Under the pieces are notes generated by a model that was given only the letters and a program-made list of their open reading frames with translations, made no database searches and was not told where the DNA came from. Of a stretch of DNA of 64,000 bases, positions 39,022-53,550 are shown piece by piece (positions within the stretch are counted from its first letter, which is position 1; each line of letters begins with the position of its first letter). Position numbers and translations under genes: made by a program. This DNA is from Synergistota bacterium (GTDB lineage: Bacteria; Synergistota; GBS-1): the NCBI GenBank assembly GCA_021159885.1, contig JAGHDO010000057.1, positions 1,418 through 65,417 of the forward strand, given 5' to 3'.

Positions 39022-39097
39022 TGGCAGCCCCTGCGGGATTTGAACCCGCGTCGTCGGACTGAGAACCCGACATCCTAGGCCGCTAGACGAAGGGGCC
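39022..39097 (-). tRNA. tRNA-Glu (anticodon CUC)
   Basis: Reverse complement GGCCCCTTCGTCTAGCGGCCTAGGAT-GTCGGGTTCTCAGTCCGAC...GGGTTCAAATCCCGCAGGGGCTGCCA folds as a cloverleaf. The anticodon loop TTCTCAG gives CTC, and CCA is encoded. Confidence 0.85.
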
Positions 39098-39117
39098 ACC
39101 TCATTAGCTTTATTATA

Positions 39118-39192
39118 TGGCTGGGGAAGGAGGACTCGAACCTCCACGCCGGGATCCAGAGTCCCGTGTCCTGCCACTTAGACGATTCCCCA
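39118..39192 (-). tRNA. tRNA-Gln (anticodon CUG)
   Basis: Reverse complement TGGGGAATCGTCTAAGTGGCAGGACACGGGACTCTGGATCCCGGCGTGGAGGTTCGAGTCCTCCTTCCCCAGCCA. It has a U1-A72 pair, a G73 discriminator and anticodon loop CTCTGGA. Its acceptor arm and 3' end resemble E. coli tRNA-Gln. Confidence 0.85.
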
Positions 39193-40805: not shown

Positions 40806-40904
40806 TTTTTCACCCCTTATCTTTTAAAGACTTTTAAAGATTATAAAACCATCTTTATGATAAAATCAAGTCTGTGGAACGAAAATTTTAAGGAGGTTTT
40901 GTCT

Positions 40905-42188
40905 ATGTCCCTTAAGGGTATGGTTGAGAATATAGTGGGCACGGATAATGTGAGGGAGCTGGAAGGTGGAGGAGTGCTTGTTGAACCTGAAACGATAGAT
41001 GAGATCAGAAATATCATCAAAGTTGCAGCTGAGAAGGGTTATAAAATCTTTCCTCGCGGATCGGGAACGGATGTGGAAGGTAAGATTAATAGTGATATAG
41101 TACTTTCCACTTTAAAGTTACGAAAGATCCTCAGAGTGGATGAGACAAACATGCTTATTGAGGTTGAGGCAGGTACGATAGTAAGCGATCTTATCTCTGC
41201 TCTTGTTAAAGCGGATCTATTTCTTCCGTGTAGTCCAACGAGTGCTGGATTCTCTACGATAGGAGGAAGTATCGCTACTAACGCTGTTGGTTTAAGAGCC
41301 TTAAAACACAGGTTTATGGGAGGATATGTTGTTGGAATAGAGGTTGTGCTTCCAGATGGAGAAACGGCAGCCCTCGGGTATCGTGATCTGGGGCGAATGG
41401 CCTGTGGGATAGAGAAGCTCTTTGTGGGGACAAGAGGTGCTTTTGGAATTATTTCAAAGGTTTGTCTTAAGGTTGTTCGTAAACCCTTATTTATTAGAAC
41501 GTTAGTCATAGCTTTTGAGGATATCTTAAGCGCTGGGCGGGTCGCTCTTAATATTGTGTCTACTGGCATAATGCCGTTTAGCTTGGAACTCCTTGATTCG
41601 AATAGTCTTGATATTGTTGGAGGGAGCTTCGATTTTCCCCGGGGAAGTGGAGCTATCTTAATTGTTGAAACGGAGGGATTTCCAGATGCGGCTATAATGG
41701 ACGCTAAGAGAATTATGAAAATGGGCGAAGATGGTGGGGCTCTTTATCTTAAAGTCTTGGAGAATTTGGAAGAGTGGCACCACATATGGAAGCTCAGAAG
41801 AGGAATTTTCAGATCTGTAGTGTATTCCCAAACTCCTTTTTTGTTTGAGAACGTGGTCGTGCCACGTTCCTCTTTAATAAGCCTATGTGAGGGAATTATA
41901 GGTATTCTTCGTAAAACCGGAGCTAAGAGCACTGTTTTTGGACATATTGGGGATGGAAACTTGCATATCTGCTTTTTAGAAGGGAGCGCTGAGCAAATTT
42001 CTCAAGCTTCTAAGGAGCTTCACGCCTTAGTAAAGCGTCTTAATGGGACAGTGTTGAGAAGAAGAGGAAGGTTGATTGGAAGGGCGACCCTTTTGCAAGA
42101 TGACGATCGAGCGCAAATAATGAGACGTCTTAAAGACGCTTTGGATCCTAAGGGCGTTATAAGCTCTGAGCCTGTATTTATGTTATAA
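40905..42188 (+). CDS. FAD-linked oxidase (GlcD-family paralog)
   Basis: An FAD_binding_4 domain is present. Start is placed at ATG 40905, 8 nt after the AAGGAGG RBS; the ORF track starts further upstream at 40857 in the same frame. Confidence 0.75.
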   Translation: MSLKGMVENIVGTDNVRELEGGGVLVEPETIDEIRNIIKVAAEKGYKIFPRGSGTDVEGKINSDIVLSTLKLRKILRVDETNMLIEVEAGTIVSDLISALVKADLFLPCSPTSAGFSTIGGSIATNAVGLRALKHRFMGGYVVGIEVVLPDGETAALGYRDLGRMACGIEKLFVGTRGAFGIISKVCLKVVRKPLFIRTLVIAFEDILSAGRVALNIVSTGIMPFSLELLDSNSLDIVGGSFDFPRGSGAILIVETEGFPDAAIMDAKRIMKMGEDGGALYLKVLENLEEWHHIWKLRRGIFRSVVYSQTPFLFENVVVPRSSLISLCEGIIGILRKTGAKSTVFGHIGDGNLHICFLEGSAEQISQASKELHALVKRLNGTVLRRRGRLIGRATLLQDDDRAQIMRRLKDALDPKGVISSEPVFML

Positions 42189-42209: not shown

Positions 42210-42830
42210 ATGAAAAGGATAATTTTAATAGTTGTGTGCGTTTTACTGGTTGTATTTGCTGCTTTGCCTGCTATTGGACAGCAGACGGGCAGCTCATCGG
42301 ACATCGAAAAGCTCGTTACAGAGCGTTATTTCGAGGGAGCGTATAACTACTATCAGGAGGGGCAATATGATATGGCCATCAAATACTACAATATTGTCTT
42401 AAGCAGAGATCCAAACCATGCAAAGGCTCTTTATTGGCTTGCAAGGCTTTATCAGGAACTTGGTTTATTTAAGCAGGCACTTGCAACTTGGCAGAGATTG
42501 CTTGTGGTGCAGCCCGATAATAAAATAGCTAAGTATTTTGCGAAGAAATGCAAGGGAATAATAAAGCATGGTGAGGAAGCCTATGATACTTATGAGCGCG
42601 CTTACGATGTTTACTTGAGGGGGAATAAGGAAAGAGCGTTAAGACTTTATGAAAAAGTTTGTGCATTAAGTCCGACTTTTGAGAAGGCCTTCCTGTGGGC
42701 CGGTAGAGTTTCCTTCGAGCTGGGTTATTACGATAAGGCGGAGTGGTATTTACAGAGAGCGTTGAATCTCGATCCGAAGGACAAGATAGCCAAATATCTG
42801 CTTAATCAGGTGAGAAAAGCTAAAAAATGA
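42210..42830 (+). CDS. Secreted TPR-repeat protein
   Basis: The 206-aa ORF has a signal peptide (MKRIILIVVCVLLVVFAALPAIGQ) followed by three or four TPR-like repeats. Its stop overlaps the next gene's start (ATGA). Confidence 0.75.
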   Translation: MKRIILIVVCVLLVVFAALPAIGQQTGSSSDIEKLVTERYFEGAYNYYQEGQYDMAIKYYNIVLSRDPNHAKALYWLARLYQELGLFKQALATWQRLLVVQPDNKIAKYFAKKCKGIIKHGEEAYDTYERAYDVYLRGNKERALRLYEKVCALSPTFEKAFLWAGRVSFELGYYDKAEWYLQRALNLDPKDKIAKYLLNQVRKAKK

Positions 42831-43582
42831 GGGGAGAACACCTGCTAAGACTTTTGTCGTTCTTAGCATTTGGGATAGTGATGGTTGCGGTTACTGCTTC
42901 TGCTTTTTCACTTCCTCTTCCCCCTTCGAATCTCGAGGCGGAAATAGTTTCTCCAACTCATATTAGACTTACTTGGTGGGATAATTCTACGGATGAAGAT
43001 GGATTCTTAATAGAGAGGAAAACATCTTCAAGTAGCTGGAAGCAAATGGGTTATACACCTCCTGATGTTAATGTTTATAACGATGAGGGCTTAACCCCTG
43101 GGGAAACATATTATTACAGGATAAGAGCTTATGAGGATACCTATTATACCGATTATTGTGAGCTCTCTCAGCCTGTGACTACCATAGGCTTTCCTGATCC
43201 GCCAACTGATCTCAGTGGTAAGGCACTTTCTTCCTCGGAAATAGAGCTTACTTGGGAAGATAGATCTGATAATGAGCTTGGTTTTATAGTCGAGAGAAAA
43301 TGGGGAAGAAACTGGATAGAGGTTGATGTACTTCCTCCCAATATGGAAAGTTTCATCGATACAGGACTCTCGGAATATACGAAATATACCTATAGGGTTT
43401 TGGCTTTCAATCAAGCGGGGAGAACTTCGTCAAATGAGGTGGAGGTCAGAACGCTTCCATCAGGAGGGGAGGTTATCTTAAGCGCTGGCTGTGCGCTTGG
43501 CGAGGGTAGTCTCGGGGTGGTACTTCTGTTTCCGATTATAGCTTTAGCTACTATTAGCTTGGGGAGATGGATCAAAAGATGA
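42827..43582 (+). CDS. Surface protein with two fibronectin type III domains and a Cys-containing C-terminal sorting-type tail
   Basis: The 251-aa ORF has a signal peptide and two FN3 repeats (LTWWDNSTDEDGFLIERK; ELTWEDRSDNELGFIVERK). The tail is SGGEVILSAGCALGEGSLGVVLLFPIIALATISLGRWIKR, a motif followed by a transmembrane helix and basic C-terminal residues. Confidence 0.75.
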   Translation: MRGEHLLRLLSFLAFGIVMVAVTASAFSLPLPPSNLEAEIVSPTHIRLTWWDNSTDEDGFLIERKTSSSSWKQMGYTPPDVNVYNDEGLTPGETYYYRIRAYEDTYYTDYCELSQPVTTIGFPDPPTDLSGKALSSSEIELTWEDRSDNELGFIVERKWGRNWIEVDVLPPNMESFIDTGLSEYTKYTYRVLAFNQAGRTSSNEVEVRTLPSGGEVILSAGCALGEGSLGVVLLFPIIALATISLGRWIKR

Positions 43583-45492
43583 GGTTGTTTTTAGCTATAC
43601 TCTTTTTGTTTATTATGACCAGTGCTGCGGTTGCAGATACATGGACCGTCATGATATATATGAATGCTGATAATAACTTGGAAGAGTATGCTATTTCCGA
43701 TTTTCTTGAGATGACCTCTGCTCCTCTTGGAGAGAATTCTAATCTTACGTTGGTCGTTCAATTTGATAGGGTTCCGGGATATGCGACCTCGGGTGATAAT
43801 TATGACGATTGGACGGGAACGTACAGGTTCGTTTTAACGCAAGGTATGACTCCTTTTTCTACTAATGCTGTTTCCTTTTTAGGGGAGGTAAACATGGGTT
43901 GTTCAGAAGCCCTTATAGACTTCGTTTCATGGGCTGAAGATAATTACCCTGCAGATCACTATGCTCTCGTACTTTGGAATCATGGAGATGGTTGGAGAGC
44001 AAGGAATCTTAGGGTTTCGTGGAAAAGCGCTGGGTACGATGAAACGAGCGACGATTATCTTTATATAGATGAGCTTCAAACCGCTCTCAGGATATTAAAA
44101 AATAGAGGTTATGAGATAGATCTTATTGGATTTGATGAGTGTCTAATGGCGATGGTTGAGGTTGCCTACGAGATTAGAAACTACGCTTCTTTTATGGTGG
44201 CCTCGGAGGAGGTGGAACCAGGAGAGGGATGGAAGTACGACGTTTTCTTAGCTGATCTCGCTAATGCGCTTGATAGTGGGGTAAGCGTTTCTCCCGAATA
44301 TCTGGGCAAGATGATAATAAATAGCTATATGGAGACGAGTGGAGCTACGCTTTCTCTTATAGATCTTGGAAGGATGGACGATATAGCTTCTCTCCTCAAG
44401 GAGCTTTCTTCTGCTCTGATAGAAAAGGTCCCGCTTGCAAGAGTTTCAAGGGCAAAGGCGACTTCCTTTTACCTCCCATCTGTGATAGATCTTTACTCTT
44501 TTTGTGCCTTTCTTGCTGGTTGGAGAACATCTGTTTCAGAACTTGCCTCTTCCTTATGCGATGCGATTAAAAGTGCCGTCCGAGAAAATTATTCAGCTTA
44601 TGGAAATGCTAATGGATTGAGCATATTTTTCCCAGATAGAGGAGAGGGGTCTTATGATAGATTTTATGATGATGGGAGACATGATTTTGCGAATTTCACG
44701 GGATGGGGAGACTTCTTGAAAGCCTATCTTAAAGAAACAAGAGATGTGGAAGAAATTAAGTGGGGGGACATGGAAATAGATGGAGTTTTGAGCGATTCTG
44801 ACATAGCAGGAGCTCTTGTTCTGCCTCCAGAGGACCTTTCAACTTCAGCCACGTCCTCGATTTCTGTTTATTTAAAGAACGATCAGGAATATCTTTATAT
44901 AGGTATCAGGAGCTATAATGACGAGAGCCTTGATATAGGAGATTCTCTGATAGTTTATCTTGATTCTAACGATGATGGTTCCTTTCCTTCAACGAGAGAC
45001 ACTGATGAAGGGGAGCTTAGGGTATTTTACGATGGGAGTCAATGGGTGGCTTACTTTTATCCGTTATGGTATGACTATTCTCAATATAGAGTTAGATCTC
45101 TCGATGCGGTTTTCTGTCCTGAGGTTGAAGCGGAAGGGGAATTAAGCGAGGATGGCTTCCTTGAGATGGAGGTAAAGATACCTCTGGGTACAGGAAGATT
45201 TCCTTTTAAGGCGGGATCTGAGATAGGATATTATCTCCAGGTCTATGACGGTGGAGAGGATGCGTTTGTTGGAGAATATCCCTTCCTTAACTTTTCTGAT
45301 ACTGCAAGCCTTGAGCCTTTAATGTATGGAGCTCTGAAGCTTGAGAAAAGCGGTGGTGGAGGAGGCGGCGGAGACGAGTTTATCGCATCGGCTGGTTGCT
45401 CGTCTGTTGAAGGAGGAAGCTTCCTTTACTTTGCTCCAATGCTTGTGGGATGGCTTCTGATACTGGAGGTGAGAAAAAAGTGGGAAGATTAA
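43567..45492 (+). CDS. Clostripain-family (MEROPS C11) cysteine peptidase with a C-terminal beta-rich domain, Gly7 linker and the same C-terminal tail
   Basis: The 641-aa ORF has a signal peptide and the C11 hallmark TWTVMIYMNADNNLE. A His/Cys dyad context is present (LWNHGDGW; IGFDECLMA). The tail is SGGGGGGGDEFIASAGCSSVEGGSFLYFAPMLVGWLLILEVRKKWED. Confidence 0.8.
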   Translation: MDQKMRLFLAILFLFIMTSAAVADTWTVMIYMNADNNLEEYAISDFLEMTSAPLGENSNLTLVVQFDRVPGYATSGDNYDDWTGTYRFVLTQGMTPFSTNAVSFLGEVNMGCSEALIDFVSWAEDNYPADHYALVLWNHGDGWRARNLRVSWKSAGYDETSDDYLYIDELQTALRILKNRGYEIDLIGFDECLMAMVEVAYEIRNYASFMVASEEVEPGEGWKYDVFLADLANALDSGVSVSPEYLGKMIINSYMETSGATLSLIDLGRMDDIASLLKELSSALIEKVPLARVSRAKATSFYLPSVIDLYSFCAFLAGWRTSVSELASSLCDAIKSAVRENYSAYGNANGLSIFFPDRGEGSYDRFYDDGRHDFANFTGWGDFLKAYLKETRDVEEIKWGDMEIDGVLSDSDIAGALVLPPEDLSTSATSSISVYLKNDQEYLYIGIRSYNDESLDIGDSLIVYLDSNDDGSFPSTRDTDEGELRVFYDGSQWVAYFYPLWYDYSQYRVRSLDAVFCPEVEAEGELSEDGFLEMEVKIPLGTGRFPFKAGSEIGYYLQVYDGGEDAFVGEYPFLNFSDTASLEPLMYGALKLEKSGGGGGGGDEFIASAGCSSVEGGSFLYFAPMLVGWLLILEVRKKWED

Positions 45493-46607
45493 GATCACTT
45501 ATCTTTATTTTCATCGCTCTTCTTTCTTTATCAACGCTATTATGCGGTTGTGGAGAGGGAGGAGGAAGTCCGTCAAGTCATATGCCTAAATGGACGATAA
45601 TGGTCTTCATGAACGATGCTACTTTAGCCTCTCGAGAATTAGCAGGTATAGATCTCTATGAGATGAGGCAAATAGGCTCAACGGATGATGTTAAAATACT
45701 TGTGCAACGCTGTTCTGAAACCGGCAGTGGAATGGTTCGCTATCTTGTCGAGAAGGGGAATATGGAACTTCTTGGGACTCTTTCGGATGCTTCACCTACC
45801 TCTTCAGATGCTCTTGCGTCTTTTGCTAATTGGTGCTTTGAAAACTATCCGGCTGAAAAATATCTCTTGATTCTTTGGAGTAGGGATGAGGATAACTCGT
45901 GGGATGGTTTAGTTAGCTGCCTTAATCTTTCTAAGGCTCTTTCTTCCTTTACGGAGAATGTAGATCTGCTCGTTTTAGACTCATCGGTTAAAGCAGAGCT
46001 TGAGCTTTTGGATGAGCTTAAGGGAAATGTGTCTGTAGTTGTGGCTCTTCAGGGTGCCATGCCCGATGATGGCTTTAACTATGAGAATATCTTTCAGAAA
46101 GTAGTTGCAAATCCTCATCATACCGCATTGGAAGTTTCGGGAAGTTTCGTTGAAGATTTTAAAAATCTCTATCAGGGGAGAAACGATGTGGCGATATCGG
46201 TTATCGATATAGCTAAGGTAGCGGATGTTGTAGGCTATCTTAATGACCTTGGTAGTGATCTTCTTAACTTTTCGGATACTTCTGCTCTCTGGGGGATTGT
46301 TCTTCAAACACAGTCTTATTTCATAACGCCTGGTGAGGAGGCTTCTTTCAGAGATCTTTATGATTTTTGCGAGAGGCTCGGAGCTTTGGATTTAAGCGAT
46401 TCTACCAAGGAGACGATAGAGAATCTAAAAAAATCGATAGAGGATATGGTCAAAAATGAATGGCATGTCTCAGATGGTATAGTTTCTGGATCTCGCGGCG
46501 TTTCACTCTATATATATACTCTTGGAAGTAGGGAAAGCGCCTATAGCGGTTTCACGATAGCTACGGATGCCTCAGATTGGTATGAGTTTGTTAAATCAAG
46601 ATTTTAA
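45480..46607 (+). CDS. Catalytically inactive C11-peptidase paralog with a lipoprotein-type signal
   Basis: Start is a GTG 8 nt after a GGAGGTGA RBS. The signal VGRLRSLIFIFIALLSLSTLLCGC is followed by KWTIMVFMND, which is homologous to the active paralog. The His position reads LWSRDED and the Cys position reads LDSS, so both catalytic residues are replaced. Confidence 0.7.
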   Translation: MGRLRSLIFIFIALLSLSTLLCGCGEGGGSPSSHMPKWTIMVFMNDATLASRELAGIDLYEMRQIGSTDDVKILVQRCSETGSGMVRYLVEKGNMELLGTLSDASPTSSDALASFANWCFENYPAEKYLLILWSRDEDNSWDGLVSCLNLSKALSSFTENVDLLVLDSSVKAELELLDELKGNVSVVVALQGAMPDDGFNYENIFQKVVANPHHTALEVSGSFVEDFKNLYQGRNDVAISVIDIAKVADVVGYLNDLGSDLLNFSDTSALWGIVLQTQSYFITPGEEASFRDLYDFCERLGALDLSDSTKETIENLKKSIEDMVKNEWHVSDGIVSGSRGVSLYIYTLGSRESAYSGFTIATDASDWYEFVKSRF

Positions 46608-52397: not shown

Positions 52398-52487
52398 GGT
52401 GAGGTGGCCGAGTAGGTCGAAGGCGCTCGCCTGCTAAGCGAGTAGAGGTAACTCCTCTCGAGGGTTCGAATCCCTCCCTCACCGCCA
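52398..52487 (+). tRNA. tRNA-Ser (anticodon GCU)
   Basis: GGTGAGGTGGCCGAG...CTGCTAA...long variable arm...GGGTTCGAATCCCTCCCTCACCGCCA. The 5' and 3' ends resemble E. coli tRNA-Ser(GCU). Confidence 0.9.
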
Positions 52488-52496
52488 TTAGGATGC

Positions 52497-52573
52497 GCGC
52501 CCGTAGCTCAACTGGATAGAGCGGTGGACTACGGATCCACTGGTTGGGGGTTCAAGTCCTCTCGGGCGCGCCA
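52497..52573 (+). tRNA. tRNA-Arg (anticodon ACG)
   Basis: GCGCCCGTAGCTCAACTGGATAGAGC-GGTGGACTACGGATCCAC...CGGGCGCGCCA. The anticodon loop CTACGGA gives ACG. Confidence 0.9.
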
Positions 52574-52587
52574 CTTAATTTAGGAAA

Positions 52588-53052
52588 ATGGATGTCTTAA
52601 ATATAGACGAGTACTTTATGAGAATTGCGCTTGAGGAAGCGAGAAAAGCGGCAGATGAGGATGAGGTTCCAGTAGGAGCGGTTGGAGTTATAGGAGATGA
52701 GATTGTAGCCAGAGCTCACAATAGGCGAGAGCAGTTGCAGGATCCCTTAGCGCATGCTGAGCTTTTTGTGATAAGGGAAGCTGCTTTAAGGCTAAGAAGC
52801 TGGCGTTTGGTTGACCTTGTTATTTATGTTACGCTTGAACCTTGTCCAATGTGTGCGGGTGCGATGGTTCAGGCGAGGATAAAGCGTCTGGTATATGGAT
52901 TGGCGGATCCTCGTTCTGGAGCTGCAGGAAGCGTTATGAATATACTTCAACATGAGAGCCTGAATCACTCCGTTGAGGTAAAAGGAGGGATTCTGGCGGA
53001 GGAAAGCAGGGAGCTTTTAAGGGCTTTTTTCTCCAGAAAAAGGAATAAGTAG
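52588..53052 (+). CDS. tadA: tRNA-specific adenosine deaminase
   Basis: The 154-aa ORF has the CDA-fold motifs HAELFVIREA and PCPMCAGA. Confidence 0.9.
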   Translation: MDVLNIDEYFMRIALEEARKAADEDEVPVGAVGVIGDEIVARAHNRREQLQDPLAHAELFVIREAALRLRSWRLVDLVIYVTLEPCPMCAGAMVQARIKRLVYGLADPRSGAAGSVMNILQHESLNHSVEVKGGILAEESRELLRAFFSRKRNK

Positions 53053-53054
53053 GC

Positions 53055-53146
53055 GGAGAGATGGCCGAGGGGTCGAAGGCGCTCGATTCGAAATCGAGCA
53101 GGCGGTTGATCCCGCCTCGCGAGTTCGAATCTCGCTCTCTCCGCCA
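53055..53146 (+). tRNA. tRNA-Ser (anticodon CGA)
   Basis: GGAGAGATGGCCGAG...CTCGATTCGAAATCGAG...GAGTTCGAATCTCGCTCTCTCCGCCA. It has a long variable arm and anticodon CGA. Confidence 0.88.
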
Positions 53147-53161
53147 TGTAGGAATAAGAGC

Positions 53162-53253
53162 GGAGAGGTGGCTGAGCGGTCGAAGGCGCTCGCCTGGAGA
53201 GCGAGTGGGCGGTTGATCCCGCCCCGGGGGTTCAAATCCCTCCCTCTCCGCCA
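53162..53253 (+). tRNA. tRNA-Ser (anticodon GGA)
   Basis: GGAGAGGTGGCTGAGCGG...CTCGCCTGGAGAGCGAG...GGGGGTTCAAATCCCTCCCTCTCCGCCA. Anticodon is GGA. Confidence 0.88.
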
Positions 53254-53268
53254 TTTAGTTTAGGAAAA

Positions 53269-53550
53269 AGCCGTGGTCGTGCTAGACGGGGAGGTAGCGG
53301 TGCCCTGAACCCGCAATCCGCTATAGCGGGGTTGAATTCCTATCAGAGGTTTCCTCTCATGGGAGCTGTCTCAGGTTGAAGGCGATGAAGGCTGGGTCCC
53401 GTGCGGCAGAGAGCCGTGAACCCCGCCAGGCCCGGAAGGGAGCAACGGTAAGCGGTATTCTCTGGGTGCCACGGGGGTGCTTGGCTGGAGCTGGAGGCCC
53501 GAGAAACGTCCTGGGGGAGGAAATCGACGATAGGTGCACGGCCACGGTTT
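53269..53550 (+). ncRNA. ffs: Signal recognition particle RNA, long (Bacillus-type, Alu-domain-containing) form
   Basis: A terminal helix pairs GCCGTGGTCGTGC (5') with GCACGGCCACGGT (3'). An internal domain-IV consensus CAGGCCCGGAAGGGAGCAAC resembles E. coli CAGGUCCGGAAGGAAGCAGC. A T-run follows the 3' end. Confidence 0.8.

Follow-up and report, generated by a model that had tools for sequence, protein, structure and literature searches.

The degenerate C11 gene and its product

The window analysed here is a 64,000-nucleotide stretch of DNA from a Synergistota bacterium (GTDB lineage Bacteria; Synergistota; GBS-1; assembly GCA_021159885.1, contig JAGHDO010000057.1, positions 1,418 to 65,417 of the forward strand). 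Our subject is a gene at positions 45480–46607 whose product appears to be a pseudo-peptidase of family C11 (clan CD), a homolog in which both residues of the catalytic His-Cys dyad are replaced and which starts with a lipoprotein-like signal. A preliminary description of this DNA had pointed out such a protein and had placed its gene directly after that of a dyad-intact C11 peptidase, where it does lie; we refer to the two products as the degenerate C11 protein and the active neighbour. The degenerate gene and the features around its 5′ end are:

45480–46607, + strand: gene for a degenerate C11-family lipoprotein, 375 aa, GTG start, TAA stop (assigned from Pfam, AlphaFold2 (AF2) and Foldseek)
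45464–45471, + strand: Shine-Dalgarno-like sequence GGAGGTGA, 8 nt before the GTG at 45480 and within the 3′ end of the upstream gene (read from the sequence)
45480–45551, + strand: predicted lipoprotein signal peptide, residues 1–24 (MGRLRSLIFIFIALLSLSTLLCG followed by C), with C24 the predicted lipidated Cys (pattern match in 8/8 orthologs)
45552–45587, + strand: Gly/Ser-rich tether (GEGGGSPSSHMP) from the predicted lipid anchor to the first strand (sequence; predicted local distance difference test score (pLDDT) below 50 for residues 13–32)

The gene fills most of a single long open reading frame (ORF; 45450–46607, +) in which the GTG at 45480 is the likely start; from this start the gene overlaps the last 13 nt of the preceding one, whose TAA stop codon occupies 45490–45492. 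The 375-residue product is the full-length protein MCD6363431.1 ("hypothetical protein J7M13_05465 [Synergistetes bacterium]"). It matches the Pfam family PF03415 (Peptidase_C11) with an E-value of 1.3e-25 and 91.2 bits (cut-off 25.8) over profile positions 9–355 of 359. An AF2 model built on a 14-sequence alignment has a pLDDT of 88.9 and a predicted template modelling score of 0.87, and only residues 1–32 (the signal peptide and tether) are disordered. A Foldseek search of the PDB with the model gives only C11 structures as its first 14 matches. Clostripain (9cip; E 2.3e-18, TM 0.72) ranks first, ahead of thetapain, the PdC11 zymogen, iotapain, a B. fragilis enzyme and PmC11. By homology and predicted fold the product is thus a member of peptidase family C11. 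All of the motifs that the preliminary description had quoted (KWTIMVFMND, LWSRDED, LDSS and LLCGCGEGGGS) are present in the ORF.

From the GTG the N-terminus reads MGRLRSLIFIFIALLSLSTLLCG and then CGEGGGS. We compared it with its orthologs, which were sought among 5.8 billion proteins; the window protein and seven ortholog clusters (8 sequences) form the clade referred to below. A lipoprotein rule of the PROSITE PS51257 type, a regular expression that we wrote (basic n-region, uncharged h-region, [LVI..]-x-[AGS]-C, and the Cys within residues 15–35), matches 8/8 orthologs, and places the lipobox Cys of the window protein at C24. L-x-G-C is invariant in all eight, as is G23-C24-G25, and of the two Cys residues in LLCGC it is the second (C24) that is invariant, the first being replaced by Gly or Tyr in other orthologs. 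The preliminary description had called the lipobox non-canonical; since the rule fits every ortholog and C24 is invariant, the motif is by its sequence an ordinary, canonical one. The degenerate C11 protein is predicted to be exported and lipid-modified at Cys24.

Former catalytic sites, orthologs and selection

The catalytic sites were placed by four independent alignments: BLASTP against the active neighbour, phmmer against clostripain 9cip, a seven-ortholog profile against PmC11 (3uws_B), and a hidden Markov model (HMM) over 190 C11 domains. In all four the family His and Cys columns fall on degenerate sites of the window protein, so that the dyad loss stands against both clostripain and PmC11, and no alignment yields an intact dyad elsewhere. 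The relevant features are:

45876–45902, + strand: former catalytic-His loop W133–W141 (WSRDEDNSW), without His or Gly; R135 is invariant in the clade
45903–45977, + strand: shortened stretch between the former catalytic sites, a confidently modelled helix and strand (loop-length comparison and model)
45978–45986, + strand: D167-S168-S169, with the S1 Asp retained and the catalytic Cys replaced by Ser (Pro in ortholog P0002), from the alignment to PmC11 D177-A178-C179
46065–46073, + strand: D196-D197-G198, in which D197 is the PmC11 Asp207 equivalent (profile alignment; invariant in the clade)

The PmC11 dyad consists of His133 and Cys179, at the C-terminal ends of strands β5 and β6 (PMC4850288). 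The ortholog profile aligns D177-A178-C179 of PmC11 chain B with D167-S168-S169 and D207 with D197, and the model of the degenerate protein has a strand at 127–134 leading into loop R135–N139 and another at 161–167 leading into S168-S169. At the His site the window protein reads WSRDEDNSW where the active neighbour reads LWNHGDGW, and the loop exceeds that of active enzymes by two residues. The His column is R135 or E137, depending on where the two-residue insertion is put, an ambiguity that is immaterial because no His occurs anywhere in W133–W141. A Gly comes directly after the His in 156 of 158 dyad-intact domains, and none of the eight clade members has it. At the Cys site LDSS stands opposite FDEC of the neighbour, and the Cys column is occupied by Ser in seven of the eight clade sequences and by Pro in P0002. 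Two further family motifs are also gone from the clade: the D-N motif after strand 1 (its residues occur in 139 and 141 of the 158 active domains), and the L-M after the nucleophile, which has become V/A-K and is lost in all members.

The segment between the two sites is also altered. It is 31 residues long from the His to the Cys column, compared with 39–144 (median 50) in the 158 dyad-intact domains, and the model has a helix (140–156, pLDDT above 90) where active C11 enzymes have the activation loop. This stretch holds the autoprocessing site in active enzymes (Lys147 in PmC11, Arg181/Arg190 in clostripain; PMC4850288), and the activation loop with its Arg/Lys site is missing here. Lacking the nucleophile, the general base and the Gly after it, the D-N motif and the activation loop, the degenerate C11 protein very probably cannot cleave peptide bonds.

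Parts of the substrate pocket are retained. The S1 specificity Asp lies two residues before the nucleophile (Asp177 in PmC11 (PMC4850288), Asp229 in clostripain); D167, in the same column, is invariant in the clade, and the column is Asp in 156 of the 158 active domains. Asp207 of PmC11 belongs to a substrate-binding loop (PMC4850288), and its equivalent D197 is likewise invariant in the clade, yet is Asp in only 74 of the 158 active domains. Compared with the structurally characterised active enzymes (clostripain 9cip, PmC11 3uws/4yec, thetapain and iotapain 6n9j/6nag, and the PdC11 zymogen 6mzo), the degenerate protein thus retains the equivalents of PmC11 Asp177 and Asp207, while it differs in having no His-Cys dyad, Gly after the His, D-N motif or cleavable activation loop and in its predicted lipid anchor, and it cannot be filed as a peptidase. 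We note that three residues are invariant in the clade and unconserved in active C11 proteins: R135 (45882–45884), C119 (45834–45836) and H329 (46464–46466). R135 is at or beside the former His position and is near in sequence to the retained acidic pocket residues.

The seven ortholog clusters are 53–99% identical to the window protein and 370–386 aa long, and all are intact; beyond them there are only C11 proteins of at most 35% identity. The clade alignment contains 117 invariant columns. When a profile was run against 1.84 billion cluster representatives, the clade came out as one 50%-identity cluster (707 bits) and the next match scored 247 bits; among GTDB species representatives the gene occurs in only two genomes, "bacterium GBS-1" and a metagenome-assembled genome (MAG) from a hot environment. 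Two of the orthologs are named 'Peptidase C11 clostripain' or 'clostripain-related cysteine peptidase' by NCBI, and active enzymes are therefore overcounted in protease inventories of these thermophilic uncultured bacteria. Between the window and the closest other genome (L004) the degenerate gene has dN 0.125, dS ~1.6 and dN/dS ~0.08, against a dN/dS of 0.062 for the active neighbour and 0.04–0.12 for flanking genes with estimable dS; as dS is saturated (1.6–1.8 or undefined), these ratios serve only for comparison among neighbouring genes. At the protein level the degenerate gene clearly evolves no faster than its live neighbour, and the fold is under purifying selection. The preliminary description had allowed that the ORF could be a recent pseudogene, with frameshifts in relatives; reading frames are intact and under selection in all seven ortholog clusters.

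The orthologs differ in how far the dyad has been lost. Five clusters read WER[D/G/E]H and LDSS, with a His present after the two-residue insertion and Ser in place of Cys; the window protein and P0001 read WSRDE and LDSS; and P0002, the closest ortholog of the window protein, reads WSRDE and LDSP. The earlier claim that both catalytic residues are replaced therefore holds for the sub-branch of the window, and does not extend to the five of the seven clusters that retain the His. From these sequences the loss appears stepwise, with the Cys gone in all members, the His also gone in the window's branch, and Ser then changed to Pro. Operon position and constraint are equal across the His and no-His and the Ser and Pro states, and because all of these states are kept equally in the same operon slot, the selected function needs neither residue.

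The degenerate protein was earlier described as a paralog of the active neighbour. This is correct at the level of the family, but the degenerate protein is not a recent copy of its neighbour. A recent tandem duplication is ruled out, as the phmmer score to the degenerate protein places the neighbour 160th among 182 C11 domains, and the best relatives outside the clade are dyad-intact C11 proteins at ~125 bits. In a rough neighbour-joining (NJ) tree the clade is monophyletic and long-stemmed; its NJ sister is P0023, a placement that is probably long-branch attraction and is not relied upon.

Pairings of an intact with a degenerate C11 domain are also found within single chains. Among the best 150 representatives there are several tandem-C11 proteins that combine an intact with a degenerate dyad: P0018 (His-Cys and His-Ser), P0023 (His-Cys and Asp/Pro), P0021 (His/Asp and His-Cys) and P0017 (His-Cys, His-Cys and His-Ser). 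The motifs of P0018 and P0023 were verified by eye, and P0018 (locus L089) has a lipobox of its own. By their scores the tandem domains of P0018 and P0023 are internal duplications unrelated to the clade.

Two other groups of altered C11 homologs were seen. One is a sizeable Fimbriimonadales subfamily whose catalytic Cys is replaced by Ser (loci L009, L011, L013, L015, L016, L018, L019, L027, L029, L031, L035 and L070; proteins P0058, P0060, P0085, P0103, P0110, P0112, P0121 and P0136), usually encoded by a lone gene, which retains the His, the following Gly, D-A-S-L-M and an activation loop of normal length. This subfamily could represent a natural Cys-to-Ser nucleophile swap instead of a dead enzyme. 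Descent of the window's clade from it is unsupported, the best relatives of the clade being dyad-intact and the His-Ser domain of P0018 scoring only 72 bits. The other group consists of homologs at L058 (a Thermoplasmatota MAG) and L060 (Bradyrhizobium neotropicale) that have the His and the S1 Asp and a Gly at the Cys column; judged by their motifs, they are another, independent kind of degenerate C11.

The active neighbour, the gene string and possible roles

The degenerate gene is the last of a string of four genes, the other members and features of which are:

42210–42830, + strand: secreted TPR protein, first of the conserved four-gene string (Pfam TPR families; position conserved in all related loci)
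42827–43582, + strand: two-FN3 envelope protein with a signal peptide and the same S-A-G-C tail (43481–43579) as the active C11 protein (Pfam fn3 E 1e-15)
43567–45492, + strand: dyad-intact C11 peptidase (H139, D190, C192), 641 aa (Pfam E 2e-54; phmmer to clostripain E 9e-23; AF2 model)
45388–45489, + strand: C-terminal tail of the active C11 protein, S-A-G-C followed by a hydrophobic segment and a basic end (comparison of tails)

The order TPR, two-FN3, dyad-intact C11 and degenerate C11 occurs in all seven lineages, with each gene overlapping or abutting the next. Between the two C11 genes the overlap is 4–13 nt in all seven (13 nt in the window). A promoter and terminator scan of 40.4–48.4 kb gave counts near the shuffled expectation, with no terminator signal above the shuffled background.

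The active neighbour carries the motifs LWNHGDGW and FDECLMA, and is composed of a type I-like signal peptide, the C11 domain, a CBM9-like beta domain, a poly-Gly linker and a C-terminal anchor tail. The sole low-confidence part of its C11 domain (pLDDT below 50) is the Arg-rich GWRARNL at residues 142–148, right after the His, in the stretch that corresponds to the autoprocessing region of PmC11 and clostripain. The beta domain (residues ~392–600; 44740–45366) has no Pfam match, and in the model residues ~394–591 resemble the CBM9 modules 7nwn, 7nwo and 1i82 (Foldseek E 4e-8 to 1e-7); a surface protease carrying such a module would be unusual. The tails of the active C11 protein and the FN3 protein share S-[AS]-G-C, which is followed by several small residues, a hydrophobic segment of about 20 residues and a basic end. 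This pattern is conserved across genomes (in the FN3 and active-C11 genes of L001, L003, L004 and L005), and within the window it is confined to these two ORFs. Neither tail matched an NCBIfam sorting domain at E-values up to 10, a weak negative as HMMER filters can lose short models. We take the tails to be reminiscent of MYXO-CTERM or Synergist-CTERM, and a literature search on the latter found no papers. The S-A-G-C tail looks like an uncatalogued C-terminal sorting or anchor signal of the Gly-Cys type, and both C11 proteins are predicted to reside in the envelope, the active one held by its C-terminus and the degenerate one by its N-terminal lipid.

The interpretation towards which we lean is that the degenerate C11 protein is a non-cutting partner of the adjacent C11 peptidase in the same compartment, and that its most likely mode of action is binding. 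The preliminary description had proposed that it might serve as a regulator, as a scaffold or in presenting substrates. It would be translated from the same message as the live enzyme, through overlapping reading frames, exported, lipidated at Cys24, and held in the envelope on its short Gly-rich tether. There it may bind the live enzyme, either controlling its activation or shielding the envelope from it; alternatively, it may use what is left of its S1 pocket (D167 and D197) to bind polypeptides that contain Arg/Lys, and hold or present them. The fused tandems indicate that live and degenerate C11 pairs arise and persist repeatedly, which lends modest support to a functional pairing here.

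Several points weigh against this partnership. The pairing is inferred from genomic evidence. The neighbourhood of ~15 kb (gltX, dksA and on through homoserine dehydrogenase, an NTPase and beyond) is syntenic as a whole within a narrow lineage, so that adjacency and co-occurrence are weak evidence, and the next genes on this strand, only 24 nt further downstream, are the housekeeping genes for homoserine dehydrogenase and the NTPase. P0180, which of all outside relatives is nearest to the active neighbour, has no degenerate partner and lies in a different neighbourhood. The S1 pocket is only partly retained because the D-N motif is lost, and the invariant R135, near D167 and D197, may simply fill the pocket internally. 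The dN/dS values are approximate owing to the saturated dS. We know of no report of a C11 enzyme forming caspase-like dimers. Moreover, PmC11 stayed an intact monomer on size-exclusion chromatography (PMC4850288).

A different explanation, which we consider unlikely, is that the degenerate fold has been re-used independently of the neighbour as a ligand- or peptide-binding lipoprotein, for nutrient capture or as part of the envelope structure, and that the adjacency is only synteny. This would suit a protein that is no recent copy of its neighbour (rank 160 of 182, nearest relatives at ~125 bits), that retains acidic pocket residues, and that lies in a region syntenic throughout in all relatives, with an oligopeptide ABC transporter and an M20 peptidase close by in the window. 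However, the transporter cluster is not adjacent in most relatives, the reading frame overlaps that of the active gene in all seven lineages, both C11 proteins are predicted in one compartment, and fused live and degenerate C11 domains recur elsewhere. It also seems rather improbable that the degenerate protein is a decoy or inhibitor, occupying or blocking the live neighbour and so sparing the envelope of its own cell. The genes of staphostatins and Spi are placed similarly, beside those of the cysteine proteases that they target, and the degenerate gene is downstream, translationally coupled, and its product predicted to be anchored at the membrane surface, where a newly exported protease first appears. 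The known co-transcribed inhibitors are, however, small proteins without homology to the catalytic domain, neither an inhibitory loop nor a pseudosubstrate can be seen, and the tether residue before strand 1 is a Lys in only five of the seven ortholog clusters. Release of the protein by cleavage at this Lys is also unsupported, the residue being Glu in the other two clusters.

That the protein is a cryptic enzyme using non-canonical residues, such as Ser169 as the nucleophile or a relocated His and Cys (the invariant H329 and C119), is highly doubtful. Five ortholog clusters do combine Ser in the Cys column with a His close to the original site, and the separate His-Ser subfamily, with its HG and D-A-S-L-M motifs, might be active. 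Nevertheless there is no His in the loop of the window protein, and Pro occupies the nucleophile position in its closest ortholog. All members have lost both the Gly next to the His and the L-M behind the nucleophile, the activation loop has been deleted, and constraint is equal with and without the His. A clan CD protein with active-site substitutions, MCA4 of Trypanosoma brucei, also has no detectable peptidase activity (PMC3220528). The loss of catalytic residues and the NCBI label 'hypothetical protein' might suggest a decaying pseudogene or a mis-called ORF without function, for which we see next to no chance. This reading is refuted by intact ORFs in seven clusters down to 53% identity, a dN/dS of ~0.08 and 117 invariant columns, and the fold is confidently predicted.

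A stronger form of the partnership, which we regard as a long shot worth stating, is that the live and degenerate C11 proteins constitute an obligate two-subunit surface protease, in which the lipid-anchored degenerate subunit gates the activation or substrate access of the live one. This would be a counterpart of caspase-8 and cFLIP or of MCA3 and MCA4, and a solution evolved repeatedly as the fused tandems. In its boldest version the pair would also process the S-A-G-C C-terminal signals of the FN3 protein and of the protease itself.

Known parallels and other features of the window

Non-peptidase homologues occur in many peptidase families, and pseudo-proteases are increasingly recognised as regulators. 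In clan CD, cFLIP-L is a pseudo-protease that pairs with active procaspase-8 and tunes its activation, although it is cytosolic, metazoan, and dependent on dimerisation of the caspase type. In Clostridioides difficile the pseudoproteases CspA and CspC are encoded beside, or fused to, the gene of the active enzyme. These differ from the degenerate C11 protein in their subtilisin-like serine protease fold, their part in spore germination and the lack of a membrane lipid anchor. CspA and CspC are reported to work with active CspB, as sensors or regulators and not as enzymes (PMC7200643, PMC6636752).

Closer in fold is T. brucei MCA4, a lipid-anchored clan CD pseudopeptidase that is processed by the active and also lipidated MCA3 (PMC3220528). 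Like the degenerate C11 protein it combines a clan CD fold carrying active-site substitutions with membrane attachment through lipid, and it acts with an active, membrane-bound paralog; it differs in belonging to family C14, in its eukaryotic host, in being lipidated by myristoyl and palmitoyl groups and not at a bacterial lipobox, and in that processing by the active paralog is known for it. The bacterial pseudo-orthocaspases, in which His-Cys is changed to Tyr-Ser or Tyr-Asn (PMC6426788), are likewise prokaryotic clan CD pseudo-enzymes that keep the fold and the acidic Asp of the specificity pocket. They have a C14 p20 domain and come from cyanobacteria and photosynthetic Alphaproteobacteria, and no lipobox or paired active neighbour is given for them in that paper (PMC6426788). 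The tandem C11 proteins (P0018, P0023, P0021 and P0017) show the same combination of live and degenerate domains within family C11, P0018 being a lipoprotein too. Unlike the degenerate C11 protein, which is the product of a separate gene, sits on a long branch and is distant from its neighbour, they are fused in one chain and, judged from P0018 and P0023, derive from recent internal duplication, their domains being close relatives of each other.

No described C11 pseudo-peptidase was found in full-text literature searches. The degenerate C11 protein is therefore a new, lineage-restricted pseudo-peptidase in a family where we found none characterised; pseudo-peptidases are an already known kind of protein, this one will not surprise a protease specialist, and its role is one that we infer. 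Its scope is narrow, being one small lineage and a single 50%-identity cluster. Within that lineage the orthologs form a clean natural series, in which loss of the Cys is followed by that of the His and then by a change from Ser to Pro, all under equal constraint and always beside a live enzyme, so that the question of what a dead clan CD fold is kept for becomes easy to pose experimentally.

Some features further from the C11 genes are also informative. In the window alone, dksA and the TPR gene are separated by a gene for a GlcD-like FAD-linked oxidase (40857–42188, +). Its absence from this position in L001, L003, L004, L005, L090 and L091 suggests a lineage-specific insertion immediately before the operon. 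The segment 30669–38315 (−), a few kb upstream of the protease operon, encodes an oligopeptide/dipeptide ATP-binding cassette (ABC) transporter (solute-binding protein, two ATPases and two permeases) together with an M20 peptidase and an amidohydrolase; this arrangement is common to the closest relative (L004), and the cluster is not adjacent in more distant ones. At 52398–53541 (+) there are four tRNAs followed by a bacterial large signal recognition particle (SRP) RNA (53277–53541, 189 bits), and this RNA cluster accounts for a local rise in GC content. Two further tRNAs (39025–39192, −) are located just downstream of gltX.

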